From Schmidtea polychroa (lineage: Eukaryota), in contig CM097885.1 in the NCBI GenBank assembly GCA_044892525.1, positions 17,362,001 to 17,426,000 of the forward strand: 64,000 bases of DNA. Direction: 5' to 3'. The notes beneath the pieces were generated by a model. The model saw only the letters and a list, made by a program, of their open reading frames with translations. It had not been told where the DNA came from and searched no databases. The translations under genes and the position numbers were made by a program. Of this stretch, positions 18,386 through 57,860 are shown in pieces (the stretch's first letter is position 1; each line of letters opens with the position of its first letter).

Positions 18386-19236
<851 letters not shown>

Positions 19237-20920: not shown

Positions 20921-20944
20921 AACAACATTTATTAAACATCAAAT

Positions 20945-32669: not shown

Positions 32670-32909
32670 ATTATACTACTAGTATTATTATTATTAACCC
32701 TAATATTATTGTTATTATTGCTGATATTACCATCATTATTACTATTATTCTCATTACCCCTAGTATTATGAATGTTATTATTATTACTATATTATTATTA
32801 TTATTATTATTACTACTATTACTATTATTATTATTATTATTGGTATTATTATTATTATTATTATTACTATTATTATTATTACTATTATTATTAGTACCAG
32901 AATGATTAG

Positions 32910-32975
<66 letters not shown>

Positions 32976-33130
32976 CATTATTATTATTATTATGATTTAT
33001 TTATTATTATTATTATTATCATTTTTTATTATTATCATAATTATTGCTATGATCATTCTCCCTAGTGTTATTCTTATCAACATTATGATTATCACCATTA
33101 TTGTTATTACTATTATTTCATTATTAATTT
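32670..33130. repeat. (ATT)n microsatellite inside the LTR
   Basis: Direct reading of the sequence. Confidence 0.9.
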
Positions 33131-33981: not shown

Positions 33982-35048
33982 TAGAGAAAAATAGCTAATT
34001 AAAACAAGAGGATTGTTGATAAAATTTTTTTTTGATTATTAGTAGACAAAATATGGAACTTCATTCTATTGTTCCTAGGATTATAGATGTTAGTCTTAAA
34101 ATAAAATATTTCTTTTTATTTTCAAATTCTTAAAGGGAAAAAGGGACAACAAAATCCTGTCTTTAACGTCGTATTACAATCAGTATAAGTGGCTTGATTG
34201 TTCTTTTGTAGAAATGTCCTATTCTGACAGTGGTAGTAACGAAGAAGCCGACCGACAGATGCTTACACGACTCCGGACACGGTACATATGGTACCGTATC
34301 CATGATTGGAACCGGGGCTTGGACCTCGACAACTGGGGCCCAGTAATCAGGAGTGGGCCGGAACCGGACGCCCCAGCTTGGGTAAAAACAGAGCCCACAA
34401 ACGATTTTTTGCAAGAGGCCCGCGACCGAGCGGCCATCGAGGTAGAAGCAGCCCAGATGCGATTGAGGAAAATCGACTTGCAAATCCGGGCAAACAAGGA
34501 AGGGAAAACCGTAGAGAAAAAAATAGCTAATTAAAACAAGAGGATTGTTGATAAAATTTTTTTTTGATTATTAGTAGACAAAATATGGAACTTCATTCTA
34601 TTGTTCCTAGGATTATAGATGTTAGTCTTAAAATAAAATATTTCTTTTTATTTTCAAATTCTTAAAGGGAAAAAGGGACAACAAAATCCTGTGTTTAACG
34701 TCGTATTACAATCAGTATAAGTGGCTTGATTGTTCTTTTGTAGAAATGTCCTATTCTGACAGTGGTAGTAACGAAGAAGCCGACCGACAGATGCTTACAC
34801 GACTCCGGACACGGTACATATGGTACCGTATCCATGATTGGAACCGGGGCTTGGACCTCGACAACTGGGGCCCAGTAATCAGGAGTGGGCCGGAACCGGA
34901 CGCCCCAGCGTGGGTAAAAACAGAGCCCACAAACGATTTTTTGCAAGAGGCCCGCGACCGAGCGGCCATCGAGGTAGAAGCAGCCCAGATGCGATTGAGG
35001 AAAATCGACTTGCAAATCCGGGCAAACAAGGAAGGGAAAACCGTAGAG
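33982..35048 (+). repeat. ~530-bp tandem duplication within the LTR
   Basis: 34214-34516 repeats at 34746-35048 (offset 532); junction at TAGAG microhomology. Confidence 0.92.
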
Positions 35049-35102
35049 GACCTAGAAGAGGCCGGGACAACCCCGCGGAAGAGGGGAAGGCCTCGCAAGT
35101 GA
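34746..35102 (+). CDS. LTR-encoded 118-aa protein with a C-terminal AT-hook (truncated duplicate at 34214-34534)
   Basis: GC-richer coding island ending TPRKRGRPRK*; pyrimidine tract-TAG just before the ATG; AATAAA at 35201. Confidence 0.65.
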   Translation: MSYSDSGSNEEADRQMLTRLRTRYIWYRIHDWNRGLDLDNWGPVIRSGPEPDAPAWVKTEPTNDFLQEARDRAAIEVEAAQMRLRKIDLQIRANKEGKTVEDLEEAGTTPRKRGRPRK

Positions 35103-35306
35103 CCGACCTGACTCATCGTCAAATTTTTTTTTTGTGCAATTATCATCAGTTATGACTTAATTAAACTTTAATTTTAGTGACGAATTATTTTATTCCTTTC
35201 AATAAATTATCTTATGAATTGCGTGCTTAATATCTGAAACTATGTTTATTTATAATATTGATCTTATTATATAATGGAATGAGCGTTATGCTGCAAGAAT
35301 GAATCA

Positions 35307-35753
35307 TTGAATTTTCACCTAGTGTTCAAACTACTTGAAAATTTGCGAAAGGACAGGGAAGAAGCCCAAAAACAGGCCGAGGAGCTCCGCATACGAGTAG
35401 ACAAGCTCAAGGGACGGTGCCGGGAACTAGAAAGCACCTGGTTTAGTCCCGAGGATATGAAAAAGAAGGTGGCGCAGGTCCTTCAACTGCAGGCTCAAGC
35501 CGCGCAGGATCAGATGGAGATCCGGGCACTGAAGCTCCAGCTCCGCGCGTTAGAAACCGAGCGAAATGAACAAGTAGTTCACGGAGCCGCCATAAGCCAA
35601 ATCCGGCCGTTGACTGTGGAACTAGCAGCAATATACCCTCCGGCCGCGAAAGAGAAACCCAAAAGAAAGCGGTTAGGACGGAACATCCGGGAGAAGTTAA
35701 AGAAGGCTAGGTTAGCCGAGTATGAGCGACAAGAAAAACCTACACCAATGTAA
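35307..35753 (+). CDS. LTR-encoded coiled-coil protein with a basic C-terminus; start uncertain
   Basis: GC-richer open frame with heptad character and KEKPKRKRLGR. Confidence 0.55.
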   Translation: MNFHLVFKLLENLRKDREEAQKQAEELRIRVDKLKGRCRELESTWFSPEDMKKKVAQVLQLQAQAAQDQMEIRALKLQLRALETERNEQVVHGAAISQIRPLTVELAAIYPPAAKEKPKRKRLGRNIREKLKKARLAEYERQEKPTPM

Positions 35754-36155
35754 TTCCCGCGATGTGAACAGTCACTTGTGCTAGATATATTGAGTTTTTT
35801 TTTTGATTGTTTATTGCTAATGTCTAAATACAAATTTAGTTAAATTAATGGATGAAGTATATTGTTTGCAAACGTTGAGTGACTGAAAACCGAGGTGTTG
35901 AGAGTTGGGAAAACAATTTCGAATAGGGGACCTGAGGAAATCGGACACAAACCTTCTAACGGTAGTCCGTGAACCCGTGGAGTACTCGACAATTATAGTG
36001 CGTTGATGCGCTCACTTTTTGCGGGTACTCAACCCTTGGTACAGTACCAACGTTGATCACTCAACGGGTACCAAGCGGAAAAACAATGTTGCATGTTGGG
36101 TTACGCTGGTAGCAGCACTTAATCATTCGACCACCTGTAACCCACCATACAAATT

Positions 36156-36869: not shown

Positions 36870-37352
36870 ATGGAATCAACCGGCTACATTACAAAGAGAC
36901 TCGAAAAATTCGTAGATTTAACACACAATTCGTTACAACGGCTAAATCGCAAAGCGGAACAGTTGGTGAAAATCCAAGACGAGATGAGCTTGAAGCCAAG
37001 ACCGCAAGCTGAGGAAATATGTGTAATGATGAAAATAGCAACACCTAATGCAGAATTGACCACTAAAAGAGTCTATCAAATTCAAAATTTACGATTAGAT
37101 AATGCCAAATTCAATATCAAATGGCAGGAGATAATGATAAAAATGGAAACGATTGAAGAAGAAATTAAAGAAGCAATCGAACATCAAATTAAAGACTTTA
37201 GAAAATGCTTCATATGCAGAATCAATGAAATACGAGTAATGACGATCCCATGTGGTCATTTATGTTATTGTGAGAATTGCGCAGAGAAAATTAAACGATG
37301 TAACGTATGCGATACGAACGTTAGAGAAAAAATTGTAATATACCTCCCGTAG
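36870..37352 (+). CDS. Coiled-coil plus C-terminal IAP-type RING (putative E3 ligase), upstream of gag
   Basis: CFIC...IPCGHLCYCENCAEKIKRCNVC...IVIYLP. Confidence 0.85.
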   Translation: MESTGYITKRLEKFVDLTHNSLQRLNRKAEQLVKIQDEMSLKPRPQAEEICVMMKIATPNAELTTKRVYQIQNLRLDNAKFNIKWQEIMIKMETIEEEIKEAIEHQIKDFRKCFICRINEIRVMTIPCGHLCYCENCAEKIKRCNVCDTNVREKIVIYLP

Positions 37353-39710
37353 GGAGATGTTGTCAAATAAATTTATTGTGAATGAAGTGAAAAAAAATTA
37401 TTAAATTATACTAAAAATCCATTATAGCAACCGAAAGGTATAAAACATACGATGAACATAGACATATAAAAGACACAAAATACGTTAAATAAATAGACAA
37501 GCTACACAGCAATTAGAACTAAAATCAAAACCGAATGCAGGACTGATCATAGTCGTATGGATGAGCTGTTCGATAAGATCAGTACGATTTTCACTTCCAA
37601 TTTTCTTTCTTCCTGTTTCATTATTTTGGCATAGAGAGATACGATAACGAGGGGATGACAAGTGAATCGTCCTTACGACACTTGCCCGGATGGGGAAATC
37701 CTGATCACCCTGACGAGAGAATGTAGTAGGATCCATCGCAAATGTTGGGGAGTTTCTGTCGAGTGACTGATCACCACTTAGGGGAAATGAACCAACGCGA
37801 TTATTATATTTTTTTTGTCTGGGAGACTGGGGTTGACTAAAAGGGTGAATAAAAATAGAAAAATAAAATAAAAATTGGAAAAACGCGCGCTAAATGTTAA
37901 AAATTTAATCCGAGAGCAGCTGCGGATTTGAAGAAACCGTTTTTGGACTTCAAATCAGATGAGAAATAATGATTTTTCCCTAGCGAGTGATGAGGCACCC
38001 GAGTACAGCGGCTAACCACCGGACTGTAGTGTCCAGGTGATTATCAGCCAAGGGACTGATGATGCTGGATCACCCAATACAAAAACCCGGATACCACACC
38101 GAGTATTGGGCGCACTTTTTTGAGTTGCTAGCGGGACTTGATACAAAAACCCGGAAGGGTAGCGAGCGAGAGAGACCCAGTTACCTACACCGAGTATTAA
38201 GGAGCCCAGTGAAACGGTTGTGAGATGCGGGTCAACCGGTAAAGGACTCGTACTCAACAGGCAACCAAGATTGGACCAGTTGTGAGGCGGGAGACCGAGA
38301 GTCAACTGCATATCCAATTTCCTTTTATCTTCACTAGTCGGGAGATCTGGTTCATCACTTTTGAGAATCAAGATCGAGGCGATTAGGCATTTCCATGTTT
38401 TTTTTAAATCCTGATAGATAGGATGTTTTTTTCTTCGTGATTATTGCTAGCAGGGGTCGGTACAAAACCCGGATGCCCACACCGAGTACCGATAGGCCCA
38501 GTGAAACGGCGATGAGATTAGAGTTACCGGTATTGGACTCTTTTCAATAGGCGGCCAAGAATTGAGCCAGTTGTGAGGCCTCAGCAGATTAGGAATTTGA
38601 GTAGGAGGAGCCTTAAATTTTTAATTAGTCCGAAAGCCAACTGTCAACTCAATTTAATCGCGGTAGGGACGATAGTAGAAAGCGTCGAGGGGTTGAAGAA
38701 ACCTCATTTAGGGCATTTGAAACCGGTCAGGGACCGAAGACCGCGAATATGGCGTAATGGTGTAAAAGCCCAGGCGTCGAGGAGTCGTAAAAGACTTCAT
38801 GAGATTAAAATGAGTTGATTAAACCGGCCAGGGAGCCGATGGTAATTGAGTGAAATAATTTAAATGAAATAGGAGAGTTGATTGGACCGGTCAGGGAGTC
38901 GATGGTAAATAAATGTAGATGCAGAGGTCGCGCGAACCAAAGCATCGATGAGTAACTATGAAATTGATTAAATTGAAATAGATTAAGTGCGACAAATATG
39001 TAAGGAGTAAAGGAGAATTATGATAAAGCGCCGGCGCAAGAGAAAATAAAACCAGTTTTTGGAGGGGAAAAGCGAACGAATAGATATTAGTTGAGTTACT
39101 GAATTTATTTATTAATGATATGTGTACTTTGATATTTCTATAATTGATATTATATTTGATGATTATAAAAGGGATAGATAATTGATGCGACTATATAGAT
39201 AATTGATATGAGTTATAGATAATTTAAAATCGACTTAAAATCAAAATGGGGCGAATAAAGAGAAGTGTAGAAAGTTAGAAAATTTGAAGCGAAGGAACAG
39301 TAAAATAAAGGGAAAATGGGAAGTAAATGAAGGGTTTAATAAAGAGAATTTATGATATGTACTAGAGGTGTTAATTATTTTAGAATAAAGCAAACAATTC
39401 AGAAAGAAATCAAAGAAATCAAGAAAGCAATAGAAATCAAGAGATCTAGAGAAACCAATCAAAAGCAAGGAATCAAAGAACTTAATAAAATTAGAGAATT
39501 ATAAAGATTAAAGAAAAAGCGAGACAATAATCAGAAAATCGAAGCTCAATCGACGAAGTAGAAAATTTATCAAAAGATATTAAAAGGAGGAAAAATTGAT
39601 AATATAGCTAGCCGAACCAGACGAAAAAGTAAGGGAAACCTCAGTTTATTAGAAAAGAAGAGATAGAAAGAGCCAAGAAAAACAGAAAACTACACAAGAA
39701 ACCAGCATCA

Positions 39711-40986
39711 GTGGAAACAGTATTTGAATCCGACAGTTTAACTAACGAATTTGAGAACAGCGACGATTTCAAACGAACCGAATTAGATCCAATAAGCGAC
39801 GTCGAATCAACTGAAGAAGAGGAAAATATATCCGAGACAACAGAGATAACCGTACTGTGCCAAGAGATAATGTCGGACGGAAACACGAACGAACCAAGGG
39901 TAACGGACCCACCGGAAGCAAGTAATGTGCACGTCAACATTGGAGAATTCAGAGAGAAATTTCGAGGAGAGCCATTCGATGGAAATATAAACCAGCTAGA
40001 AACATTTATAAAAGAATTTGAGGTATACATTACGATATGTCACTGGCCAGACATAGTCGTACGAGAACGAATACCCCTATATCTAAAGGGAAGCGCCCAA
40101 GATGTATACTTGGAGGCGAAATGTGATGCAACAAAGTTGAGAACGTGGAAAGAGATCAAGGAGTTTTTAATAAAAACATTCGGTACCGAAAAAGAAGGAA
40201 ATCGAAAAATGTTAGACTTCCTGCATCGAAAGCAGAAATATAACGAATCCAACGCACTGTACGCATGCGAATTGAGACGACTAGCACGAGAAGCCTTCGA
40301 TTCAAATCAACCAGTTCCGGAAGACAAGATAATAGCCGTATTCGTAGATGGCATGAAACGAGAGGATATACGAGCAACCTTAGGATGTCGAGCACCAGAG
40401 ACGCTGGAAGAAGCACTAAAAATAGCCAACAAATGCGAAACTTACCTAACACCAATACAAGTAGCAGCAATGACAGCAGCTCCAGCAGCTCCAGCAACAA
40501 CAACAACAACCACAAACAACCAAGTCAATAATGCAAATCCAGTAATGAATCAATTCATCCCAGGATCGCAACAGTTGTTCAAAACCTCGCAAACGAGAAA
40601 CCAAGACAATGGAGGTAATATTCAAAATTTTACTAATAATTTCAGGAACAACGACAATCGAACGTGCAACATATGCCAACGATCAGGGCATTGGAGCAAT
40701 GAATGTTATAGAGCAAGGATGTGTCAAAAGTGTGGGAGAAGAGGCCACACGGAAACCATCTGCAGAGGTCCCACGATGCCTACGGGCAGAGGAGGAACTA
40801 GAACCTGCTACAATTGCAACCAGCCTGGACACATGGCCAGAGAATGCACGATGAGAGCCAAACCAAATCAACCAGGATCAAACAACCCAATTCAGAACAC
40901 GCAAATCAACCTCATGCAGGAAATCGAACAATTAAAGGATATGATCCAGCGAATACCGACTAATAATCAACAACAACGAATCAACA
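39711..40986 (+). CDS. gag: Gag (capsid plus 3 CCHC knuckles), first part of the polyprotein; start codon uncertain
   Basis: PFDG...LKGSAQDVY...RKQKYNES (capsid); CNICQRSGHWSNEC, CQKCGRRGHTETIC, CYNCNQPGHMAREC. Confidence 0.92.
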
Positions 40987-43900
40987 ATGATGCAGAGCAC
41001 CGAAGAAATCCGGAAACAACCAAGTAAGCAACAACAAGACCAACAACGAATCGAATGGCAAAGGTTACAAAACGAAGAAGCCAGAGAAATTCAAGAAAGA
41101 TGGAAACAACGGGAAGCGAATCCCGGAAGAATAAATATGATGAGGTTAACAAATAAAGAGGAATCTCACACTGCGGAGCAGTGTGTTAACAACGAAGGCA
41201 GTGATCTGATAAAAACGACGAAAGAAAATGAGATTGATCCACAGACAAAATTGAGCAGCGAAGAGAAAATACAATTGATTAAAGAATTTACCAAAGAGGA
41301 GAAAGAAAGGAGACAAAAGAAAGATGAGAGCCAAGACGAATCAAAAAGCAATGAGATAGTTACAAAAAATCGAATTCAGAGGGTACTACTAAAAAAAATC
41401 GAAGACAGAATCAAAAACGAAAACCCTACATTAACTAAGGAACAAATCAAAGAAAAAGTGAAAGAGCATTGGTTCAGGAAAAATGAGTGGTTCGAAAAGA
41501 AAGAACCACATACCAAAGCTAAAATAAACATGTTGAGACAAATGCGGAGTGATCAGACGGATCAGGAAGATGAGAAAAGTGAGGTGAGTAGCCTGGGAGG
41601 CGAATTATTTCAGTCAAGTGAGGAAAACAACGAACCGAAAACACCTCCAAACAGTGAAACACCTCAAAGTAGTGATGAGAGTGAAAATGATGACATGAAA
41701 TCAATGATAGAAAAAGATGATGAGGAGATATTTGAGGAAATTTTCGACACAGTAACAGAAATAGAGCGGAATGAGAGCTACATCAACGAGCTAACATATA
41801 GAAAATGCGTAAAACTTATAACTCAAGTATACCAGTGTGAAGGAGGTATAATAACGGCAGCATGGAAAGATTTAGCAACAAGATATAAAGAGAAACTAAA
41901 GGAAGCAGGCCCAGATCAATATCAGGTAAGTATTCAACACCCCGAGATTCAGATACAGACTATTGAATTAAAAGGAACAAATACCGATGAACTGTACAAC
42001 TGGGTACAGGAAAAAATGGGAACGAGCCATAAAAATAAACAATTATATGTCGATGGTTACAAAGTTAAAATGGGCATACATTTGGTAGATGCGATGATAT
42101 GGCCAAACGGAACTAACATCTTAACCTTAGAGAAAACCAGAGACGACGAATCAGTGGCAGAAATGTTCCAGAAAATCCAACAAGTGTTTAACAATGAAGT
42201 GGAACCAGAATTGGAAAAGATCGAACGAAAAATAATGAAAGAAAACCAAATAATCTTGGTTAAACAAGCTATCGATCAGGCAAGAAAATATATTAATAGA
42301 CTGAGAGAAAGATGGCCACAACTAATGAAACAATTTGTCAAAGACGTACGAGACACGGAAATTATGAGATTCGAAGATAAACGAGCGACAGAATTGATAT
42401 CTAAATACGGAGAATACGAGAGAACCAAATGCGAACGAGAAACGATAAAAATAAAGGTGAAGTTGCCAAATGAAGAGAAACAAATAATAGAAGTTTACCC
42501 CGATTGCCAAGTTGACGAGTTAGTGCAAATCATGGATCAAGAAATCATCCAAAAAGCTCGAGAAAATAGTGAGGATGGAATGATCGAAGATGTGATAATA
42601 ATGTACAACCGGCATATGTTAGAAAGAGGAGACCGAACTGTAATTTACGAACTGGGAATCTGGGAAGATGGAGCCGTCATCAATATAATTGCGATGGATG
42701 AACCATCGGGTGGACACAAGAACGCCACCAAAACAGAGCAACAAATTAAAAGATTCCAATGGGGGATGAGAGCAAAGATGGATCGAATAATAGATATTTA
42801 TAACCATTGGCTAAAAGATGATAAATTAAAATTAGCAGCATTCAATGATAAAGATTGCAAACTGATACCATGGAAAAAGGTGTGGATTGAAAGTGAAGCT
42901 CGATGGGATTGGGAGCAGCAAAAGTTGGAACCAAATTGGATAGATAATATACCCGAAGAGATCGCAGCAGTATGGGTAAGAGAGAAACCAATCGATGCTT
43001 ACCAGGATATATTACCACAAGAATTCCAAAATGAGTTACAATCAGGAGAAGATGAGGAGATACGAGAACCGGTAAGGTTAGCACCATTCACGTGGAAAAT
43101 TGAGAATTGGATGGAAAAGATAAAATCAGCAAGGGAAGAGAAAATCACACGATTAGTAAGTCCACCGTTCTACTCAGGATTAGGTGAGTACAAGATGAAA
43201 TTGCGAATATACCCGAACGGAGATGGGGTAGGAAAAGGAAGTTATGTGTCGGCATTCTTCATCATCTGCAAAGGGAATTATGACGATAAGGTACCATGGC
43301 CGTTTAGCAGAAAGGTAACGATAGCGATCGAACCACTGAAAGATAGCCTTAACATACATAAAGAAACAATGAAACCAGACCCAAGGAGCACATGCTACCA
43401 ACGACCAACAACATCAGAAAATATCGCTTCTGGGACGTCTAAATTAATACGTCTAAATTACATTGAGAATGAACAATCAATATTTGTGAAAGACAATGCT
43501 ATCCAGATAAGAGTAGAAGTTGAATCAGAGCAAGAAATGAACCAACGACTGAACATACCAGAAAATCAACCGAGAATCTGTATGATGAGGAGAAGAGTGC
43601 CTGATTCAGGATATCTACCAATAGACGCCGACGCAGATGAGGAGGAAGCAGCAACATTGTTGGAAGCACAAAAATGTAAGGAATTGATGGAGATATTACA
43701 AAACGGGGCGAAAAATCGTCGACGAGCGGTAGTAGAACTAGCAAAATGGATAGCCGAATCATGCAAAAGGATTCAAAACCTACGAAAAATCGTTAAAGCG
43801 ATTGAAGAATATCGACGGGTATACGTATGGTACCCTGAACAATTTGGTGAAATCATTCGGAAATGGAAACAACAAGAGTGGGCCGAAAACTTACCTGAGA

Positions 43901-45204
43901 AATATCAACTAAAAATATTCTTGCCAGATTTTGAACCAATGGAAAAGGAATTCTACACAACAGCCAAGGTCAGGGAAGGTAAAAAGAGAATACCTTATGA
44001 ACTCCCATTCCACTTACAACACGAGGGACGATCATTAGACGACGATATCGAAATTGGTGTGACACCACTCCAAGGAGAAATTGTGAACAGATTAACGGTG
44101 AGTAAAATTGCAGGGAGAGAATTAAGAAGAAGAGAAATAAAGCAAAAATCATCTACACAACAACCAGGAAGTTTAGACACACCAGAAGTTCCAAATGCGG
44201 TTAGTGAAGTAACGATCGAAACAACGGGAGAAGACGAAATACTAGACGAATTACAAGAGATAGTAGAAGCAGGCGAGATTATGAGAGCATCGCAATCAGG
44301 AGATCTATTCATCGACGAAGGTGAACCAACAACTGATGATCTAGATGGATTTGTATGTGCGCAAAGACAACCAGTGGAAACGACAGAAGCCGAGACGGAT
44401 TTAGATAATGTGGGGGGAAGTGCCAATAAAGATGTAACCACAACCGATGAATGGAGTAACTGGAGAGTAGATCCAGGAGCGACCACGTCAAAAGATACAA
44501 CTTACAATCCGCCAAAACGGAAAGAAACCGGAACGGCTATGGATCGACGAACAAGAGGAAGACCAAAAACAGATAAAGCAGAGGTGGAACCAAAATCCAA
44601 AATTCAAGCACAAATGGAACAGGTAAAAACTAAAATGGATAAACTAAGCGCATTAGTAAAACAAGTCAAAGTGAAAACAAACGTCCGGGAACAAGGGACA
44701 CGATGGATAAACGACTTATTAGCTAACATGTTAGCGTTATCAAATCCAGATGTGAAAAGAGTAATGAGGAAGGATAATATTCCGACCGAAGCCAAACAAT
44801 TATGGGCGGTATTGAAACCGATATTAATGAAAATCATGGATAATAAAATTCGATTAACGTTAAAGGATCCCGTGGAACTCAGATTAATTGTGGAACATCT
44901 GTTAAGCAGATCAGAAGACCAAAATCGATATTTAGTGGGATTAGCATATTTGGTGTATAACGTCATTGGTCAATATAAAAAACGAATGCCAAAATATAAC
45001 GCAACTGGTTATGAATTCACAGTAACAGAAATAATCCAGCGATCAATAGAACCATATATACTTGAACAAGGGGGATGGAGAAACTTCATCGAGTCAACTG
45101 GAAAGAAAGATCAAACGGAAATGATGCAAGCAAAGTTACGCGATTTGCTAACGGAATTCGAAGGAACAATCAATATGAACAACCCAAGAGCAAGCCGAAA
45201 GGGA
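40987..45204 (+). CDS. Polyprotein accessory region: up to three ubiquitin-like domains, a TRAF-type MATH domain (~43084-43524) and a Bcl-2-like domain (~44690-45090)
   Basis: PFTWKIEN...SPPFYSG..YKMKLRIYPNGDG.GKGSYVS.F...KGNYDD..PWPF (MATH); YILEQGGWRNF (BH2); IKIKVKLPNEEKQIIEVYPDCQVDEL...PSGG (UBL). Confidence 0.8.
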
Positions 45205-47569
45205 ATGAATGCCATAATAACCACGATACTGATATGGATGATGTGCATCAAAGGAACGGAGTCATTTGCAGTATACGACTGCGACAACATAAAAATCCAT
45301 GAGAAATATTCATTAAAGGATACGGAAGACTGTAAAGCGGCAAACCCAAGAAAATTACAAACAGTCATGGCATCAGTCTCGTATAACGTATATCAAGAAG
45401 CAGATTTCATCAAAACCATGGTCCAAGAATGTACGGTAACCAGAAAGATATTTGCACATCACTGCGGTTCATCCTCCCACTCAACAATCATAGAACCGGG
45501 ATTGGAATCGACAGTAATATTACTATCAAGAGAGGAATGCGAGGAAGGATTCCGATCAGGGAGAATCCACTTAAGGCAAGGGATTGAAATTGCTGCAGAA
45601 CCAGGAAAAATAAAAACGACTCGCGTGTATACGGCAGGCAGAATCACTAAAGGAGATGGAACATGTGAGACAGGAACATACACCTTGAACGGACAACTGG
45701 TTAGTGGAGTGGTCGTAATAGAAAGCTACGAAGCTAAATTAGAAAGGTATCAAGGTTATTTCGACCCTGACACGCAAGCAATGAAGAAATACCCAAGTTG
45801 TCTCGCATCAGATCGATCATGTTCAACCGGAATGTCAACTCTGGTATACCATGCGGATCAGAAAGTATGTCGACTAATGTTACTCAAAACAGCAATATTC
45901 GAAGAAATCCAAGGGAAAGTATACAGTGAACCAAAAGGAGAAGCAGAAAAACGAGCGATGGAAGAGCTGAGAGCAAGGAAAGGATTCAGAGAAGACGTAA
46001 TAACATCGAAATTGGAATCGGAAGTAACACCCACAGCGATAATCTCCAAAGACGATGGAATAGGAATGAGGTTCATAAAGAACAAAATGGTGAGTAAATG
46101 CGATGAGATGGTGATCAGCACCAATTATAAAGGGATCTACTTGTCGCGGAGAACCCTAGCAAATGCAGTCGGAAGACTAAGCGAAAAGGATGTCAAACTA
46201 TATTTATACGCTAATAATAAGATGGATTTCTTATATCACAGAGGATTAACATCCACGGAAAAAGTCTACCATGATCTGTTAAGAAACGATTGCCTGCTCA
46301 ACAAAGAAATATTGAGAACAAAATTAGCAATGGCGATTACAAATCCAGATAACGCAAATCCGTTACTACCATTACAGGAAGGATATTTCGGACGAATCGT
46401 GGGTGAAGTGATGTACACCTACCAATGGCAAAAGATAATGGCAAGATTGCCAGAAAACCCTACAATACCAAGAGATAAGTGTGCAAACGAACTCGAAATT
46501 ATTCACGAAGGTAAACCCAGGTTTGTGCAAGCAGTCACTAGGGTGATGAACCCGGTAGGGTTTCAACCAAATCTGTTTAATTGTAGTAATGCATATGGGC
46601 CAATGTATGAAAAAGAAGATGGACAATGGGTTCAATTCCCAAGTAAAACAATCGTAGTAATTTGGATTGACGGAACTAACAACAGAACTAGAGTTCAAGC
46701 CGATAGACGTATCCCAGAGTGGATTATATACACCAAAAGATCTCGAATCAGCAAGAGCCCACCTGTTATTCCCAGCGCAAAGACAAGCAATCTTATCAAA
46801 TATAGTGACTATTTCTGGAGGAAATAATTATGGGGAGAGCCCGAACTACGAGCTATTATTATCACCAAGTCACTACCAACAAGCAACAGCAAACATGATG
46901 AAGGCTATGTGGGGTAGATTTTTAGTATTTGGCCAAATGATGGCAGGAATACTCGGAATTATTCTGATAATACAAATAGTTAGAGTGATCCTAACTCAGA
47001 TGCTAGCATGTTTTGACATCTATAAGCGCGAGAGAAAAGTAAATTGGAAACTTGCAATTGGATTCTTACCGTTCTTAGCGAAAACAATGGTGTTGCATGG
47101 ACACTCAAAGGATATTCATCGAATAAAAAGATTGTTGAAAATATTAACGCAAATGAAAGGGACAGACGAAGAAGTCGGATGTAAGTTCAAAGTGATAATG
47201 AGATTAGAAGCAGAAAGAACTCAAGAGAAAGCGAAAAGAACCGGGAAGTGGAAAAAGTGGATGAATCTCAGACGAGACGATGATAGTGATGACAATGATG
47301 ATTTCGACGACGACGACAATAATCAAGGAGGAGTAATGTTGATAAACAAAAATACAGCCACTTGGGAAAACGAAAAAATGAAACCATGGGGACCACCATA
47401 TTTACAGGCACCAACTAATGGACCAATGCGACGACCAGGAACAATGAGAGAACGGATAAGAATGGGAACCGGAAGATTACCCGTACCGAATATTTATCCA
47501 ATGGCTTATGAGCCAAATTGGGCAGCACTGGACCCAACAATGACCAAGCCAGTTAAAAATGTGGGGTAA
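45205..47569 (+). CDS. env: Envelope-like glycoprotein (chuvirus/Monjiviricetes G-like), frameshifted at ~46660
   Basis: Signal peptide MNAIITTILIWMMCIKGTES then FAVYDC; HCGSSSH; AGRITKGDGTCETGTY; Cys-rich ectodomain; SGLYT; TM segment FLVFGQMMAGILGIILIIQIVRVIL. Confidence 0.75.
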
Positions 47570-47572
47570 GAG

Positions 47573-50500
47573 GTGGAGACACGAACGATTGCAGTATTGC
47601 AGACACCAGCAGGACCATCATTAACTATCACGGTCGAAGTAAACGGAATAGAGATGGACGCAATGATTGATACCGGAGCAAATATCTCAGCAATAAATAT
47701 GAATATGTTACCAGGAAGACTATGGCCATGCATTGAGGAGACAACCATGGATGTAATAACATGCAGCAAACAATCCATAGCGGTAGTAGGAAGAGTATGG
47801 TCAACGATCGAATACAAAGGGGTTAAAGTTACAACGTACCTCGCAGTCATTAGACAGCTAAGCGTATCATGTATAATTGGAACAGATGTAATGCCGCAAT
47901 TATTGAAGGAAATTGTGATTGATTTGAGTTCCATGAAATTAAAAGATAAAACTGGACAGATATGCACAATGAGAACAGAAGTGAGATGCTCCGAAAAAAT
48001 GATAATACCAGCACGTACCCAGACAATATGTTATGTCAAGGTCGATAACGAAGCCAAAGGAGATATGATATTTGAACCAAGTCAAAAATTCGAGAAGAGA
48101 AGGGAGCTGCCATTGGCAAGAGAAATTGTCAGTATAAATGAGGATAACGAGATACCCATCAACATCACCAATTTTGATGAGGAAGATAAAGTAATCTACG
48201 AAAACGAGAGACTTGGAAAACTCACACCAATGATGAACATTGAGCTGCCGGAGATAAAAAGCGAGGGAGCAGACGAAAAAGAATTATGGACCATCGATAG
48301 CGAACTCCTAAATGAAGACGAAAAGGAACAACTCAGACAACTACTGATTGAGTTTAAAGATATTTTTGCGGCTTCAGATTTGGATTTGGGTACTAGCGAT
48401 GTAACTCAACACATTATACCATTAACAGATGAGACACCCATAACCTTGAGACCATATCGATTGGCTGAAGCACAAAAAACGGTAGCAGAGGAAGAAGTAC
48501 AAAAGATGTTAGATGCTGGTGTAATAGAACCTAGTTGCTCACCATGGCAATTCCCAGTAGTAATGGTCAAAAAGAAAGATGGCACACAGAGATTTTGTAT
48601 TGACTATCGGAGGTTGAATGCAGTAACTAAAAGGGATACGTACCCACTGCCAGACATAAACGAAATGTTACAGATGTTGCATGGAGCAGCATACTTTACA
48701 TCTTTAGATTTAAAGAGTGGATACTGGCAAATTAAAGTTAAAGAGGAAGACAGAGAAAAGACAGCCTTCACCATCGGAAAAGATCTATATCAGTTTAAAA
48801 AGATGCCATTTGGATTAACAAACGCACCTGCTTCGTTTCAAAGATGTATGAACTTTGTGACACACGGAATTAAACAATGTATGGTGTATATTGATGATCT
48901 GTTAATTTATTCAGGTACTTTCGAGCAACACTTAATCGACATCAGAAACGTATTCATAGGACTGAAACAATGGAAGCTGAAATTGAAACCGTCAAAATGC
49001 GATTGGGCAAAGGAGAGAGTCACATTTTTAGGACACATTGTGTCGGCAAAAGGAAAAGAACCAGATCCGAGAAACGTTGAGAAAATAAAGAATTGTCCGA
49101 TACCAAAAACCGTGACTCAGGTACAAGAATTTCTGGGATTATGCGGATACTACCGCAAGTTCATCAAAAATTATGCAACTATCGCAAAACCAATTCAGGA
49201 ACTAACAAAAAAAGATACTCCATTTCTGTGGGAAAGGGAACAGCAAATAGCGTTCGAATCGCTAAGAGATAAATTAATAGCCTCGCCTATCTTAATCCAC
49301 CCAGATTTCAAAAAGCCTTTTTTATTAGCAACTGATGCAAGTGGATACGCATCAGGAGCTGTGCTAGGACAATGGGATGAGGAGAAAAGAGAAAGAGTCA
49401 TCGGATATTATAGCAAGACGTTCAAAAAGCACGAAAAGAATTACTCAGTCACAGAAAGAGAAGCTTTAGCAATAATTCAGGCGATAAAACATTTCAAATA
49501 TTTATTATGGGGACACGAGATAATTATTACTACGGATCACCAACCTCTAGTTTGGTTGGGCCAACATAAAGAAGCATCTAGCCGATTAATGAGATGGGCA
49601 ATGCAATTACAGGAATATTCCCCATACATCAAGTTCAAGTCAGGAAAAGCAAACGCAAATGCAGATTGCATGTCGAGATTCGTATTTGAAGAACTCATGG
49701 ATCATGACGTCAGGCGAATATGCATGATAATCGCGGAAGATATCGATTTTACCAATCTAAAGAACGAACAAAAGGAAGACAGCGAATTGAAACTAATAAT
49801 CGAATTCCTGGATAAAAACGATATGAAAATATTCAACAACGATGATCGATTGAAAGAACATATGGAGAAAAATCGTCACAGATATACAATCGAGAAAGAA
49901 TGGCTATTGGTAATGGATGGCGACAAACGACTGATGTGTCTACCAGAAAGTAGACGGAAAGAAATTATGATTCAATACCACGACGGTAAATTGGGCGGAC
50001 ATATGTCAGCCAAGAAAACAGAAGCAAGGCTCAAACAGAAATATTACTGGCCAAATATGAGCGATGACGTGAAAGAATGGATAAAGAACTGCTTGATATG
50101 CGCAACCAGAAAAACAACGGGCAGTAAACTAAAGCCGCCATTGAAACCAATGCCGATACCGCCAGAACCGATGACAATGATTGCAATGGATGTAGTTGGA
50201 CCACTACCAGAGACTAACAGTGGAAATGTGTATATATTGGTAATAACTGATTATCTGACTAAGTTCCCTGAAGCATTTGCGATGCCAGACCAAAAAGCAC
50301 GAACGGTTGCAAGGATATTAGTGGAAGAGATCTGCTGCAGATATGGAACACCAAAACAAATCTTAACTGACCAAGGAACTAATTTCATGAGCGAGATAAT
50401 AAATGAAGTGACAAATTATTTTAGAATTGCCAAATTGAGAACCTCGCCATACCACCCGCAAACGAATGGTCAGACAGAAAGATTTAACGGCATACTAATA

Positions 50501-51120
50501 GACATGATGTCAAATTACGTGAGTAAACATCAAAAGGACTGGGATGAATATATTAAGTTGTGTCTAATGGCTTATCGAATGTCAATACACTCATCAACGA
50601 AAATGAGTCCGTTTAAACTCATGTATGGAAGGGAATGCAACATGCCGATGGATCTCGAATACCAACCGCCAATCTCACAATATATGGAGATAGACGATTA
50701 TGTGACAAAGTTCAAAGAGAGAATGCAAGAAATATGGAAAACCGCAGGGATGAACATCCGATTCAACCAAGAAAGTTATAAGGAATTGCATGATTAAAAG
50801 AAGAACGTGCAAAACCATCAATTTAAAGTCGGAGATTGGGTTATTATAGAAATACCCGAGTTAATCCCAGGAACGGCAAAGAAATTACAACGTAATGGCA
50901 GAGGGCCATATGAAATCATCTATGTAAACGAGAACAACGCTAGAGTAAAGTTGGTTAACAACCCACTAATTAGACCCATTTATGTGAATACGTGTCGATG
51001 TAAAGCAGTAGCGAAAACTGCCACTAAAGACCCAGAAACAAGGAAGATAATCACGAGATCACAAACAAATACCACAACGGAACCAGAAGTAAGCGGTAGA
51101 TTAACTAGATCACAGACAAG
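47573..51120 (+). CDS. pol: Pol: protease, RT, RNase H, integrase with GPY module; in-frame TAA at 47567 and 50795
   Basis: IDTGA; FCIDYRRLN; LDLKSGYWQ; MPFGL; YIDD; ATDAS; HDGKLGGH...CLIC; MDVVGP, TDQG, GQTER; FKVGDWV...GPY continuing in frame after the stop. Confidence 0.97.
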
Positions 51121-53887
51121 ACGGATATTCATGTTGAGGGGAGAAACAAGCAGCAGCGCCCATAAAGGAACCGAAGCAGAAAGCGAAGCTGACGCAATGG
51201 CAAGGAGCCAAGCAACATGGAATATGACAGTAAAAATAGCACGAGAAATTGTACCAGAATGGGCCGATATAACCAATAAATACCAAGTATTGGGCAAACT
51301 AATGTTAGTAGCAGAAAGATATGCGAAAGGACGAAGATATGCCGAAGGATTACAAATACCAACCCAAATATATGAACTAATCCGGAGATTACCAATCATG
51401 TTCCTAACAAGTGATTTGAGTAATAACTGGCCAATCCATCATGCAGTGAAAGCAGGACAAGAAAAACGAGCATTAGAGATTATACGAATAATGGAAAACT
51501 GCAAACAATCAACAAACGTCAAAAACAGTAAAGGAAAAACTCCACTGATGAAAGCCATAGCAATAGGCGCGTCAAGAGAAGTACTCAGAGAATTATTGAG
51601 AACGGGATCCACGTTGAAAGAAAAAGATAACAAACAACGAACCATCTTACGTTATGCCGTCAGGTCAAAAAGACCTAGTATACTAAACTTTATCACGGGA
51701 AATGCAACCGCTGAAGAGGCCGAGGTGTTGGGACAGAGCATTGAACCAATTCTGGAAGCCATCAGAGGAAACTTAGACAGAACCGCAGCAATGTTAATCA
51801 AATGGAAACAAAACGAATTAAAAGCGGAAGTAATCGATATAAATCAATTTCAGAACACCGAAAATATCGTACTAAGGAGCGCCATATACTCAAGACCACC
51901 AATGCCAAAAACCATTAAAGCAATATTACAAAGAAATAGAGCAGAATTGACAGGTAATTGGTGGAAATGCACAAAAGCACATACGATGAAAAAGCAACTA
52001 GAAATAATAGTGTGGGAATGGCACCGGAAACAACGGAAATATCAAGGAACCAAAGAAGAACGAGAAAGTATCCACAACGATAAAAAAGAGATAATTAAAA
52101 AATACGAAGAGATGATCAAAGCGACAAATGTCGAGGACGACATTTTTGGGAAAACCCCGGGTGAGAGGAATGACGACGATGACGACGACGAAAGGATGGG
52201 GGATAACGATAACAACCCAGAGGAAAACGACAGAGAACAAAATCCGGAGGGCGGAGAAACAACGGATGATGATGAGGAGTTGGAAGAAGACGAAGAGGAC
52301 CAATGTCGAGGTGAAGATCAGGGATTCGACAAAACAGAAAACAAAAAGCGAAAGTCCCCACTACACAGCATAGTATTTCGGAATCAAATCCAGCCAATCC
52401 TACTACAAAGAATATTTATAATACTAACATCTATCTGTTTAACGGAAACAAAAAATATGAGAATCGTAAGAGAAGCTTTCCAAGAAGGCGAAGTATTTAT
52501 GATAAAAGTCAGCGATTACGACGGAAACGCCGTCGGAATATGTGTGCAACTAATGGAAGGAACAGGAGTAAGTTGTGATTTCAGATCGATAACAAAAGGA
52601 AAGATCTTTAGCAGCCAAAAAAGAGACCCCAGGCTATGCGGAGATTATGACATCTGTAGGGACATAACAACAGAGGAAATGGAACTAGAAAGAGCCAATG
52701 AAACCGGAGTACATTTTCAACTTAACATTCTGAAAGAAGGTATCGAAATAGAGGATAAAGGGAGTCGATCAATTACACATGTATGCATCAGAGAAGACAG
52801 AGATATATGCATAATAACAGATATGACACAAGACCACAAATTCTTCTGGGGAGAAGTCAAACCAAATACCCCTACTGTGGTATGCGCAGGAACACAAGGG
52901 ATAGTAGTATGTAAAGGAACAAGAACTGCACCAAGAAAAGACAAACCAAAGAGTATGGCAATGAAACAAGGTCCATTGATGGGGATAGCAACCAAGAAGC
53001 CAAACAAATCAGTTAGAACAAAAACAACAACACAACAAAATCAAACCGAATTAATAACAACAACAACATGGATTAACGAAGTAATTAAAGACGAAAGACG
53101 GGAAGTGCAGATAACTATTAACCTCAACAAGAAAGGTGAAGAGGTAATTACAGTCAAAAACCAAGAAGGAGAACCAATCATAAGGATATGTGTAATGGAT
53201 AAGACGGGAATAATCGACTGTACAACAACACCGATAGACAAAGGTGCAGACGTTAAAATGGAGACAGGGAAACGGAAAGAGCGATACCAAGTATGTATCC
53301 TTAAGAAAGGAAGAGGAACCAGCGTATGTCAACCAATAACTCGACAAAAACCCCAATTAATAAACATACCGTGGATACCCCGAGATCAAGAAGGGGGAGA
53401 GAAACGGGAAAATCACAGTCACCTAACAGAAAAAGAGAAGGAACGATTACATCAAGCATTCAAGAAAATCAAAGCACCAGAAACAAACACCACAGGTAGT
53501 ACAATATTAACGACAGAAAAAACAAATAATGGAACAACGATAATCACAAAGATGATATGGATAACTAGCGCGATAGTAAGCACGATAATAGCGTTAGCAA
53601 TGATTCAGTGGATAAGAACCACCAAAAGATGTAAACAAAAACCGAGAAACCGAAGAAAATGGCCCAAAGTGGAAAAATTTGAATACGGTATTCCAACCGA
53701 GAATCTGAATCTAGGAGAATACGAGGTGGTAGAGGACCCCGGATCCAGTGGATTGTGGATGTCGGAACTACCAAGAATACCCACACCTAACGAATGGGCA
53801 CACGAAGTCGATATATACCGACTAACGGACGAAAGATATGGGGGAATGCGCACGCTGCATTCCGGCCCCATGGCGACACTGGTATAA
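51121..53887 (+). CDS. Post-integrase extension: ankyrin repeats (~51420-51690), acidic linker, then a type-I membrane protein (signal ~52400-52450, TM ~53552-53614)
   Basis: WPIHHAVKAG, GKTPLMKAI, QRTILRYAV; hydrophobic IFIILTSICLT; repeated Cys-containing beta units; MIWITSAIVSTIIALAMIQWI followed by a basic stop-transfer. Confidence 0.8.
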
Positions 53888-54578: not shown

Positions 54579-57500
54579 ATGCAAAACAAAGCGGAAGAGA
54601 ACCGGAGAGAAGCAGAGGAACAAAAGATTAACTATGAATTGATGAGAAAATATCAAGCCAAGCCGGACGAGTTCGAAGAGAGGCTATTATGTGCCGATGC
54701 AGCATGTAGAAGACTAAAAAAAAAAATCAAATTTTATTTTAAGTAAATCAATCTGGCACAAGGCCGAAGGGGAGAACGGTTCTCACCCTTAAATAAACTG
54801 AGATTTTTACGTCTATTCTCTTTGGATGCTGGAGTTAGGAGCTCTGGCATCAAACATGGTTTTTTGGCTTGGTTTAGTATCGGTTAGGGGAGGCTTTCAG
54901 TCCAATCAGCTTATGCTTCCTGTATAATAAGATTAAAATATCGGAGTAGGAAGACTCCATTTGTGATTTTTATAACGTTAATAGCTGATGTACTTATAAT
55001 ATAATAGAGATTGAAAGGATGTTGTAAAGTACCAAGGGTTTTAATATATTACAGATATGAACACCTAAAAAAAAGTATTATCCTATGAGCGGGGCCCCTA
55101 CAAGGGCCCCTACATTTACACATAAGCCATATTAATCTATTTATATTTATTTAAGTTTTAATAATGATTATTAGAAGGGGATAGAGTTATTAGTTGAGGC
55201 AAATAGCAACGCATTAGTAATTAAATATTAAAAGTAAAAATATTAAAAGTAAAATTATTAAAAGTAAAACCCCTAAATAGTTAATATTAATATAATAGTA
55301 AAATATTTGAGCTATATAAATACACCTACACCTATATACATATATATACATATATTAGTCATTGTTATAGGTATTTTCAATCCCTGGAGGAGACATATGA
55401 AAATCTAAGCAACTACGTATTTATCGTATTACGTTTATAATAACCATAGTGTATATATATATTATTCCTTAAGGGTGTGTTCTCTAAAGATATGATAGCT
55501 GCTTACTACCGCAGCTGTGCAAGCGTTTCTTGCCAGGCTTTTTATTTCAGTTTTGGAGAGACCTATTTTACTGAGAACTTGGTCGTTTTTGTTGTACCAA
55601 GAGCCTAGAGTACCTATTATCAAAGTAGACAATGTAGTTTTTACTTTATGAGTTTTTTCTATTTCGATTGCCAAATTGGCATATTTTCCGTAATTATCTG
55701 CATCCGCTTTTTTAAAATTTTCTCTTTGCTCGTAAGGTACTTTGATATCTACAATGTGGGTAATTTTATTTCTCGATGATCTGATGAGTAGGTCAGGTAT
55801 TAAGGTAGTTTCGATTCCCTGTGGCGTGCGTTCGATGTCCATTTTGAATCCATAGTTAAGAAGAGATTGACATACCGCTTCTAGTACACGTGTATGCTTA
55901 TTTTTTCTTGCATTTATTTTTGCAGGGCAGTGATTGAATACATGCGCCTGTGTCTCTGGGTGGGAATTGCATTGCCTACATAGAGTATTTTTTTTAGCCT
56001 TTAATCTATGTGGTGCATAGTTTAGTTTAAGGAGATTGTTCCTTGCTCTTATAAGGAATAGGTATTGAGCATCGGTTAGAGTGTCAGTTTTAACCAGGTA
56101 GTCAGCCACGCTACTATTGCATATGGATTTAGCAATATGCCCTTGGCATTTGAGATTGATCCATTTTTCTGCATGGATTAAGCCTATTATTGAGTGGAGT
56201 TCTGATGATGTGTTGTTGAGATTTGTGGAGAAGAAATAATTGATCCTTTCTTTGTATTTTATTTCCAGCTGGTACATGTCATCTAGTAAGACAATTTTGA
56301 CATAAATTCCATATTTTAATCTTAAGAGGTCGACGGATTTCCTGAATTTAGAAAAGAAAGATTTATAACCAAAGTTTTTTGTAGTATCACCATTGATCCA
56401 TGATAAGGCAGCCTCTATATTGCCATTACCCCGTGATAATGCAAGTTCCATTAGTACTAGATTTTGGAAGCCTGTATCAGAAGAATTTAGTGCCCGAGCA
56501 AGGTGTACAATACTTTGTATGAGATATTCATCAATGGCTGAGGTTAGTCCAATACCTCCCATTTTCACCGATGCTGATTGGAGCAAGTCAAACTCGATGC
56601 GGGTGTAGATTATGCCGAGGGTGTGATATAAGATTAGCCAAGCTAAAGCGAGAAACTTGTCCAGGATGTGGAGAAGCATTTAAGTTGGTTCCCACTGGCA
56701 CGATACCGGATAGAGCAATGAACCGAGAAATCAGAGAAGTGAAAATAAGATGCACCCAAAGGTCATGCGAATGGACAGGTCGAGTAAAGGAGTTAAGAGC
56801 CCACATAGACGTATGCGAATATCTAGAATTGGAATGCGAAGCATGCACGGTAAAGTTTTTACGAAAAGAGAAAACCAAACATAAAGGGGAATGCGAAGCG
56901 CGAACGGAAAAATGCGAATTTTGCGGAGAAACTGCTAATTGGAGAGAAATCGAAATGGAACATCGAAACGCAGTAGAAAGACGGATTTGCGACGAATATA
57001 CAGGGAGATGCCCAAACGAGTGTGGAGAAATTAACAACGTCAGATTATATGAACATTGGGAGATATGCACGAGAAAGACGATAAAATGCCCAATGGTAAC
57101 ATTCGATTGTAGAGTACAATTACCAGCAGAAGAAATGAAGAAGCATGTGGAGGAGAATACATTCGAGCACATGCAAAAGATGATGAGAGCAATAGAGTTA
57201 ACAGCAAGGGCAATCGAAGATGTTAAAGACGAACTCAAATCACATAAAATCATGATAAAAGAAATGCTGAGCTCACAGGAAAGCTTCGAAAATACGAGAG
57301 AAGCCGTAACACAAAGGATGTTGAAATTAGACGACAAATTAGTCGAAGTAACTAAACTACAAACCAAATGGACTGCAAAGGAACTGACAACAGAGGAACT
57401 ACCAATATTGCCATATATGTGGAAAATCCAAGGAATAACAGAAATAATAAAGCAAGCAAAGCAAGGAATCCAGACAACGATAGTGAGCAAACCATTCTAC

Positions 57501-57860
57501 GCCAAGAAACATGGATACAAGATGAAATTGAGATGGTTTCCAAATGGTGAGGGAAAGTTTAAAGATCGGTGCATGTCCATGTATATGCAAATCTGTAAAG
57601 GAGATTTTGACGACCTAATAGCATGGCCATTCCGACATAGATTAAAAATATCTCTCTTGGGATCAAAAAAGACACATATAATGTGCTGTCGAGCATCAAG
57701 TCCAGCATGGAATAAACCGATTACAGAGGTTAACCCTGCGGTAGGAGTAGCAGAGTTTATGCAGCTATACCAGTTTAATGACGGGTCCTACATAGAAAAG
57801 GACACTATATTCTTCCTAATCGAACTAGACGAGGAAGGACCAACAATAGAAATACGATAG
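54579..57860 (+). pseudogene. TRAF-like gene (RING, TRAF zinc fingers, coiled coil, MATH) split by a LINE insertion
   Basis: 5' part MQNKAEE...RLLCADAACRRL (54579-54716) and 3' part QTRCGCRLCRGC...CEWTGRVKEL..H...YMWKI...SKPFYAKKHGYKMKLRWFPNG...WPF (56589-57860). Confidence 0.88.
54732..56587 (-). mobile_element. 5'-truncated non-LTR retrotransposon with restriction-like endonuclease (NeSL/R2/R4 group)
   Basis: Minus ORF ending at 55462: GGIGL thumb, CRQC...ETQAHVFNHC, PDLLI...IVDIKVPYE, KY, IIGTLGSW; ~730-bp 3' UTR ending AATAAAA; candidate TSD TCAAA at 54727 and 56588. Confidence 0.88.

Follow-up and report, generated by a model that had tools for sequence, protein, structure and literature searches.

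Env genes make retrotransposons infectious agents. In Drosophila gypsy and ZAM the env gene is of the F type (baculovirus F-like), lies 3' of pol and is expressed from a spliced RNA, and nematode elements with the order gag-env-pol were reportedly presented in a 2022 paper. Burro/GYPSM1 of the planarian Schmidtea mediterranea, as portrayed in the accessible portions of the 2019 account (Arkhipova & Yushenova 2019, PMC6431247; Grohme et al. 2018 as cited there), exceeds 30 kb in length, and its copies number in the thousands. It encodes a polyprotein of 4873 amino acids (aa) with a Gag carrying three CCHC motifs, a MATH_TRAF_C domain, env, protease (PR), reverse transcriptase (RT), RNase H (RH), integrase (IN) and ankyrin repeats; BIR and RING motifs are also present, and the account notes regulators of apoptosis and ubiquitination. 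Its env is described there as lying in frame between gag and pol and as matching mononegavirus fusion glycoproteins. Excerpts of a second paper (PMC8532177) describe BURRO1 as highly abundant and active, with gut-enriched RNA and piRNA control. In the extracts of a survey (eLife 2026, PMC13524379), GAG-ENV-POL gypsy elements with an ENV of the herpes simplex virus (HSV)/glycoprotein B (gB) type are reported from Platyhelminthes, Nematoda and Bryozoa, six S. mediterranea entries are listed (Smed_errantivirus_1 to 6) and the chuvirus-like glycoprotein is described as structurally gB-like. Finally, Anakin-type mosquito BEL/Pao elements carry a chuvirus-derived glycoprotein (excerpts of Dezordi et al. 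2020, PMC7642597). Here we analysed 64,000 nucleotides (nt) of Schmidtea polychroa DNA (contig CM097885.1, positions 17,362,001 to 17,426,000; referred to as the window), which contain an envelope (Env) coding stretch at 45205-47569. This stretch very probably represents the env part of a giant Ty3/gypsy endogenous retrovirus of the Burro type, in which a class III fusogen of the chuvirus/Monjiviricetes G type is encoded within a single polyprotein frame, and the copy in the window is a defective one. Where env lies in frame between gag and pol, one has to ask how a single translation product can yield both cytosolic enzymes and a membrane protein that is secreted.

The env stretch sits within a long series of plus-strand reading frames, and all parts of the module are on the plus strand. 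It opens with an ATG at 45205 that starts a 20-aa hydrophobic segment resembling a signal peptide (MNAIITTILIWMMCIKGTES, 45205-45264; hydrophobic segment aa 1889-1903 in the 4791-codon frame of the element, described below). The motif FAVYDC (45265-45282) begins at the very next nucleotide, and the putative signal-peptide cleavage site likely lies just before it. The ectodomain (45265-46918) is ∼555 aa long and contains 14 Cys residues (numbered here as in the intact copy); its sole RxxR is at aa 117. It is followed by a single transmembrane (TM) anchor (46919-47011, env aa ∼576-608, Kyte-Doolittle maximum 2.7-2.9) and, in the translation, by a cytoplasmic tail or linker to the protease of ∼180 aa that includes an acidic run (47012-47566). 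In the window copy the reading frame switches near 46659. The second frame (46661-47569) closes with a TAA at 47567-47569 and is the same frame as that of pol, which begins at 47570. An internal signal peptide, FAVYDC, an ectodomain and a TM helix upstream of the protease had been proposed in a first, sequence-only reading of this DNA, and all four were located. The 'Cys-rich ectodomain of ~550 aa' of that reading agreed in length, but with 14 conserved Cys residues the region is not strikingly rich in Cys.

Next, we asked to which family Env belongs. The Pfam family PF24664 (Monjiviricetes_fusion, 'viral fusion glycoprotein'), with a gathering cut-off of 27 bits, matched the N-terminal part of env with 149.5 bits (E 1.2e-43) and the C-terminal part with 70.5 bits (E 9.6e-20). 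Word-indexed homologue searches gave just 3 and 4 relatives, and an exhaustive search was needed: with the env of an unaltered sister copy as the query, a profile-free search of 1.84 billion representatives yielded 994 relatives at E ≤ 1e-3. In an alignment of 68 sequences (env and 67 relatives) every one of the 14 ectodomain Cys residues (C26, 43, 76, 87, 112, 154, 199, 206, 222, 299, 363, 408, 426 and 460) was invariant or at least 90% conserved. The motifs on which the sequence-only reading had based its family call (YDC, CG..SH, AG....G.C..G.Y and GLYT/GIY) were all four present in the consensus of this alignment. When env was compared by BLASTP with the glycoprotein of Tacheng Tick Virus 4 (P0031 in our set, family Chuviridae), the two aligned from end to end (aa 16-611 with aa 27-590) with 24% identity and an E of 2e-43. 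Among 20 cluster representatives whose names were looked up, it was one of two that bear a name, the other being a protein from a metagenome bin labelled Flavobacteriaceae; a further cluster has named members, which are beetle genome copies.

The fold pointed in the same direction. AlphaFold2, supplied with the env of the intact sister copy and the family alignment, gave a model with a predicted local distance difference test score (pLDDT) of 87.7, which contains a 48-residue central helix (residues 332-379). In a Foldseek search of the PDB with this model, herpesvirus gB was the top match (E 1.7e-14) among 118 matches at E ≤ 1e-3, and VIA-align superposed the model on gB with a Z of 10.0 over 416 aligned residues (root-mean-square deviation 7.0). 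In BFVD the best match was the Tacheng Tick Virus 4 glycoprotein (E 1.7e-40), the top matches to 1e-35 were glycoproteins of chu-like viruses, and they were followed by the G proteins of qin-, xinmo- and rhabdo-like viruses and then by gB. The neighbours of env in a language-model atlas were the PF24664, rhabdovirus G, gB and gp64 clusters. A sequence search of the PDB with env, on the other hand, returned just a chance match (E 1.4), so the kinship to solved structures is visible at the level of the fold only. Env also has the anchoring typical of class III proteins, a single C-terminal TM anchor, with a furin-type internal priming site not being required. Judged by the predicted model, Env is thus a chuvirus-type class III fusogen. 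The sequence-only reading had staked its chuvirus-like call on there being a profile or structural likeness to viral fusogens; this likeness was found with PF24664, in BFVD and with gB, and together with the end-to-end alignment to a Chuviridae G and the class III fold it upholds the call.

We then compared the window copy with its sister copies. Searching the genome (781 Mb) for env gave 2971 first-look candidates, from which the best 80 were scored, a set biased towards intact copies. Among these 80, the frame reached at least 4700 aa in 42 copies and was exactly 4791 codons long in 29. In all five sister copies that were fetched, one unbroken frame of 4791 codons, with its first Met at codon 104, runs from gag to the end of the ankyrin/membrane region. 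It encodes, in this order, gag, a region with a MATH domain, env, PR-RT-RH-IN, ankyrin repeats and a second membrane module. Thus the placement of env between gag and PR proposed by the sequence-only reading was borne out, and the intact copies elsewhere in the genome that it had named as a check do exist. Its assignment of the host element to the Gypsy type is likewise supported by the Pfam domain set of pol: the order is PR-RT-RH-IN, the integrase has an H2C2 domain and gag has CCHC knuckles, as in Ty3/gypsy elements. The Pfam scan of pol (E ≤ 0.01, the reporting threshold for all element proteins) gave gypsy/retroviral-type families only, and Pao peptidase was not found in it.

The same layout is seen in distant relatives. 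We examined the 13 closest long relatives of env (28-41% identity), all from metagenome assemblies. PR and/or RT/RH/IN followed env in the same protein in 9 of the 13, and one also had a gag zinc knuckle on the 5' side; the fused relatives retain a signal peptide inside the protein, ahead of A[YF]DC, mostly without a starting Met. For the phylogeny we used 52 rows, i.e. the window env and 51 of the 150 matches listed, with most fragments left out and no Anakin sequence among the rows; the tree is unrooted. Of the 51 sequences, 11 were cut from longer proteins (9 of these with PR/RT downstream), 6 were short or uncertain and 34 were stand-alone proteins of ∼650 aa. A branch with SH-like approximate likelihood ratio test (SH-aLRT) support of 89-90 had on one side the window env together with the 11 envs from longer proteins and the 6 short sequences, and a starred set (97) adds two long-branch stand-alone rows to these. 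On the opposite side, 32 stand-alone proteins formed a starred set (97), including the chuvirid one and a cluster that contains beetle genome copies (P0029). The grouping of env with 11 envs from inside longer proteins points to an old association rather than a recent capture, and the 'independent capture' of the sequence-only reading found no backing. The tree fits a long-standing link, common to these sequences, between this lineage of env and polyproteins of the gypsy type, and gives no direction. Two relatives deserve a separate mention. P0010, a 2627-aa env-PR-RT-RH-IN polyprotein that is 36% identical to env, has a database entry as a hypothetical protein from a metagenome bin of Flavobacteriaceae; most likely this is retroelement DNA of an animal that was binned with a bacterial genome by mistake. 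P0156 (4844 aa, metagenomic) has a signal peptide and YDC near aa 212, a second YDC at aa 4173 and seven hydrophobic segments, which may reflect either read-through across two elements or the duplication of a module.

What could be the topology of such a polyprotein? The 4791-codon frame contains exactly four hydrophobic segments. The env signal segment and the env TM (aa 2469-2493) are followed far downstream by a second signal-like segment (aa 4296-4310) and a second TM (aa 4681-4701). A signal followed by a stop-transfer segment, twice over, would leave gag, the Env tail, PR-RT-IN and the ankyrin repeats in the cytosol and both Cys-bearing regions in the lumen. The second module (52397-53614) consists of the signal-like segment (52397-52441), a region of 371 aa with 12 Cys residues and 6 N-glycosylation sequons (dN/dS, the ratio of nonsynonymous to synonymous substitution rates, 0.10 against a sister copy) and the TM (53555-53614). 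Its place, downstream of integrase and ankyrin repeats, is the one that a classical env would occupy. In the three distant relatives that extend >400 aa beyond the integrase, at least 2 hydrophobic segments were present past the integrase in each. The second module had no usable match in the language-model atlas, phmmer found nothing resembling it in the proteins collected in this analysis, nor among the longer proteins, and its AlphaFold2 model from the single sequence was poor (pLDDT 45.2).

On this basis the following route can be pictured. Gag and the N-terminal domains would be translated in the cytosol, and the internal signal peptide would then direct the nascent chain to the endoplasmic reticulum (ER). 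Signal peptidase would cleave just before FAVYDC, the ectodomain would pass into the lumen and the TM helix would halt the transfer. The tail and PR-RT-IN would remain cytosolic and be freed by the protease of the element itself, in a flavivirus-like manner. With trimeric Env on membranes, capsids could bud and fuse with other planarian cells, and the element would spread as an infectious agent. Identity, fold class, domain order, the single frame, the lesions of the copy and purifying selection are demonstrated here; processing, fusion activity and cell-to-cell spread are predictions. Possible, but less likely than not, is the full version of this model, in which capsid, fusogen and replicase form one ER-threaded polyprotein of the flavivirus style, the orphan ectodomain of the second module is a second envelope protein and the element is an actively infectious agent. 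If it is true, the two-module topology together with the very low dN/dS of env in deeply diverged, co-existing lineages (see below) would mean that planarians harbour an actively infectious retrovirus-like agent with an expression strategy not known for any reverse-transcribing virus, and this agent might pass from permissive differentiated cells into stem cells.

Alternatively, the template for Env could be a subgenomic mRNA that begins near 45205 and arises by splicing or by spliced-leader trans-splicing, with gag-pol perhaps translated from an RNA lacking env and the single frame being a by-product. Retroviruses and Drosophila gypsy do express Env from spliced RNA, flatworms use trans-splicing, and in the present element family a Met codon stands exactly at the start of the signal peptide. 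However, the internal signal peptides of most fused relatives have no Met at their start, and within the 4791-codon frame pol has no start of its own 3' of env. Moreover, even relatives with 28-41% identity keep env joined in frame and without stops to the sequences on either side, as would hardly be expected of junctions that ribosomes never cross. We regard a subgenomic Env mRNA as possible but less likely than translation of Env as part of the polyprotein.

We also asked how strongly env is constrained. For the env ectodomain, comparison of the window copy with a sister copy gave a dN/dS of 0.03-0.05 (synonymous divergence, dS, 0.13-0.22). In the same comparison the values were 0.02 for PR, 0.01 for RT-RH and 0.06 for IN, while gag and the Env tail (0.17 each) were less constrained than the env ectodomain; the middle part of the polyprotein had 0.08-0.15 against the sister copy. 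Among 15 copies, 74 of the 105 pairs had at least 25 differences in 1380 nt of env, and in all of these dN/dS was between 0.01 and 0.13 with dS of up to 0.27, the pairs having common branches and so not being independent. Intact copies differed from each other by an env dS of 0.10-0.16 and yet by 2-4 residue changes in 460 aa. Several old lineages of the element with working-looking genes therefore co-exist. As judged from substitution patterns, Env is under strong purifying selection, and the constraint on missense changes shows that the lineages that multiplied kept the Env protein itself.

This selection also bears on the possibility that Env was kept for a non-infectious role inside the cell, for instance as an ER anchor that turns the polyprotein into a platform for assembly or replication. 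A polyprotein fused in this way inevitably holds gag and pol at a membrane, ordinary retrotransposition could yield thousands of copies, and the ectodomain has one glycosylation sequon only. Nevertheless, the low ratios extend over the whole ectodomain and not just the signal and TM segments, both in the comparison with the sister copy and across the pairs, and all 14 family Cys residues and the full class III fold have been retained, which a mere anchor would not need. A purely intracellular role is accordingly unlikely.

The window copy itself can no longer follow this route. When compared with three intact copies (L011/L012, L013/L014 and L015/L016), it carries five lesions: the loss of 1 nt after 39657, the gain of 1 nt after 40985, by which gag is cut off from what follows, the deletion of 11 nt after 46658, which is the frameshift in env, the TAA nonsense codon at the env/PR junction (47567-47569, plus strand), seen in the window copy alone, and a stop at 50795-50797 that ends pol and is absent from all five sister copies fetched. 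Eight of the nine copies L002-L010 have the 11 nt, the exception being L003 with other indels at this place; L011, L013 and L015 have them as well. The env/PR junction is free of stops in all 7 of those nine copies whose alignment spans it, and in L006 env continues straight into the protease. Neither the 11-nt deletion nor the TAA occurs in any other copy aligned at those places. The window copy differs by 3-6% at the DNA level from the abundant lineage, and its own long terminal repeats (LTRs) are only ∼0.3% apart. It is dead and cannot make Env. We had also considered the 11-nt deletion as the mark of a subfamily, as L002-L005 matched the frameshifted tail; this was ruled out by the presence of the 11 nt in the eight copies mentioned above.

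The sequence-only reading had described env as 'in frame with pol after one TAA'. This is true of the window copy, but the TAA is absent from sister copies that have one continuous frame, so it is a lesion of this copy. For the same reason, low-frequency readthrough of the TAA as a means of setting the Env:Pol ratio, comparable to the gag/pol stop of gammaretroviruses and suggested by the single TAA between two parts of one frame in the window, is ruled out for practical purposes by the sense codon in the seven aligned copies, by the unbroken frames of the five further ones and by the four other lesions of the window copy. Equally implausible is a decayed, functionless chuvirus G fragment that came to lie inside a retrotransposon by chance, as might be thought from the broken env of the window copy, given that env is intact and in frame in 42 of the 80 scored copies, is under strong purifying selection and keeps its position in distant relatives.

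Several points weigh against an Env-bearing, polyprotein-encoded retrovirus of the Burro type and should be kept in mind. The single N-glycosylation sequon of the ectodomain is few for a viral glycoprotein, and the synthesis of Gag, Env and Pol in a 1:1 ratio, which a single frame implies, is unusual for retroelements. The in-frame pol 3' of env would by itself account for part of the selection against stops and frameshifts in env; the low dN/dS speaks for a constraint beyond this, but its pairs share branches, as stated above. As for the kinship to published elements, the BCL2-like, SUMO-like (Ubi2) and dUTPase-like motifs of the 2019 Burro paper were absent from our Pfam hits at E ≤ 0.01, although the HHpred used in that paper is more sensitive. 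In addition, none of the six Smed_errantivirus entries, as given in the extracts of the survey, is identical to env; the ENV segment of Smed_errantivirus_6 is ∼73% identical to it over ∼154 residues as counted by eye. The element may therefore be another member of the family than the published Burro, or belong to another host species.

The element around env is a Ty3/gypsy element of 38.0 kb that is flanked by LTRs of 5766 nt (5') and 5216 nt (3'). The 5' LTR (30384-36149, plus strand like all parts of the element described here unless stated otherwise) was delimited by blastn against its 3' copy, with which it shares 99.35% identity over 4133 nt, 99.35% over 1225 nt and 100% over 410 nt. The 3' LTR starts at 63195, runs to the end of the window at 64000 and extends 4410 nt beyond it, to window-equivalent position 68410. 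The 5' LTR contains one more repeat of a ∼550-nt tandem unit (33983-34814) than the 3' LTR, as well as short open reading frames (ORFs) at 34632-35102 and 35283-35753. Both LTRs begin with TG and do not end with a clean CA, and there is a possible 5-bp target-site duplication (ATAAT), which is weak evidence since the flanks are A/T-rich and of low complexity.

Upstream of gag there is an accessory ORF with a RING domain (36870-37352; Pfam zf-C3HC4_3, E 1.4e-11). Gag (39633-41027; Pfam Retrotrans_gag, Ty3_capsid and zf-CCHC) comprises a capsid-like domain and three CCHC zinc knuckles, which are three CX2CX4HX4C motifs. It is followed by the middle part of the polyprotein (40945-45204) with a MATH/TRAF-C domain at 43087-43521 (Pfam MATH_2, E 3.5e-28) and, after env, by pol (47570-50797), in which Pfam recognised PR, RT, RNase H and integrase (RVP, RVT_1, RT_RNaseH, Integrase_H2C2 and rve) and in which the aspartyl protease carries DTG (47666-47683) and RT carries YIDD (48887-48898). 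The C-terminal part of the polyprotein (50798-53887) has ankyrin repeats at 51434-51697 (Pfam Ank_2) and then the second membrane module, identified by its hydrophobicity. Two further accessory ORFs lie downstream: a TRAF-like one with a TRAF zinc finger and a MATH domain (56523-57860; Pfam) and an IAP-like one with BIR and RING domains (58001-59179; BIR E 4e-15, zf-C3HC4_3 E 3.2e-12).

Between 59259 and 62840 there are long, coiled-coil-looking ORFs rich in Lys and Glu that match no Pfam family. On the minus strand, a 405-aa ORF at 55462-56679 overlaps the start of the TRAF-like ORF and has a weak match to zf-RVT (E 9e-4, below the cut-off); it may be a fragment of a nested non-LTR element. 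The A/T-rich DNA 5' of the element contains dense tandem or satellite-like repeats with periods of ∼28-31 and ∼9-12 nt (3600-6350 and 18390-21000), and also, separately, a pair of 300-nt repeats at 9271 and 11919 with 92% identity, possibly the LTRs of a small element.

Finally, we compared the element with the known systems. Set against its published description, of which parts were available, Burro/GYPSM1 resembles the element in size, in copy number, in having a single polyprotein with the same order of domains and in its BIR/RING proteins. The two differ in that the published polyprotein has 4873 aa and the frame found here 4791 codons, and in that the available 2019 text stresses an HHpred likeness to the (F-type) Env of gypsy, whereas the fold found here is class III and gB-like. 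The GAG-ENV-POL errantiviruses, as far as the extracts describe them, share with it a pol of the Ty3/gypsy type, a class III env 5' of pol, near-identical copies and a flatworm host. The survey (PMC13524379) worked with an LTR distance of ≤14 kb and found no LTRs for the planarian entries; it accordingly does not present them as 38-kb elements like the one described here.

The glycoproteins of Chuviridae, such as that of Tacheng Tick Virus 4, are like Env in the PF24664 match, in the Cys pattern, in the end-to-end alignment and in being its best structural match. In contrast, the G of Chuviridae/Jingchuvirales, which are negative-strand RNA viruses, is encoded by a stand-alone gene of ∼650 aa and lies on the opposite side of the main split of the tree, whereas Env is a segment of a polyprotein. 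The Anakin-type elements have in common with the planarian element that an LTR retroelement carries a chuvirus-type glycoprotein; they differ in being BEL/Pao and not Ty3/gypsy elements and in their insect hosts. Their env is reportedly a separate ORF. Drosophila gypsy and ZAM are also Ty3/gypsy elements with env and are thought to move between cells. An errantivirus in the strict sense has a separate, F-type env 3' of pol; the planarian env differs from this in being class III, in its position 5' of PR and in being part of the same frame. The polyproteins of flaviviruses and pestiviruses offer a mechanistic analogy only, with no homology: their single chain crosses the ER membrane by means of signal and stop-transfer segments and is processed by host signal peptidase in the lumen and by the viral protease in the cytosol. 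These are RNA viruses, their fusogens are of class II, and the processing suggested for the planarian polyprotein is modelled on the order of its hydrophobic segments.

With respect to these systems, the in-frame gag-env-pol order and an env of the mononegavirus/gB type are already in print (PMC6431247, PMC13524379). A full-text literature search from 2018 onwards for planarian, retrotransposon, gypsy, envelope and fusion glycoprotein jointly returned no paper, with no search aimed at the membrane topology of a polyprotein or at a second membrane module. What may be new is the membrane-threaded topology with two modules and an orphan ectodomain, and likewise the class III fold call for the window env and the strength of the selection on it. 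To the published picture our re-analysis adds a confident class III assignment for the env of the window, a precise explanation of what has inactivated the window copy and the observation that in diverged lineages the constraint on Env matches that on PR, RT and IN, as expected of an element that needs Env to multiply. It also adds a two-module membrane polyprotein model that is directly testable.

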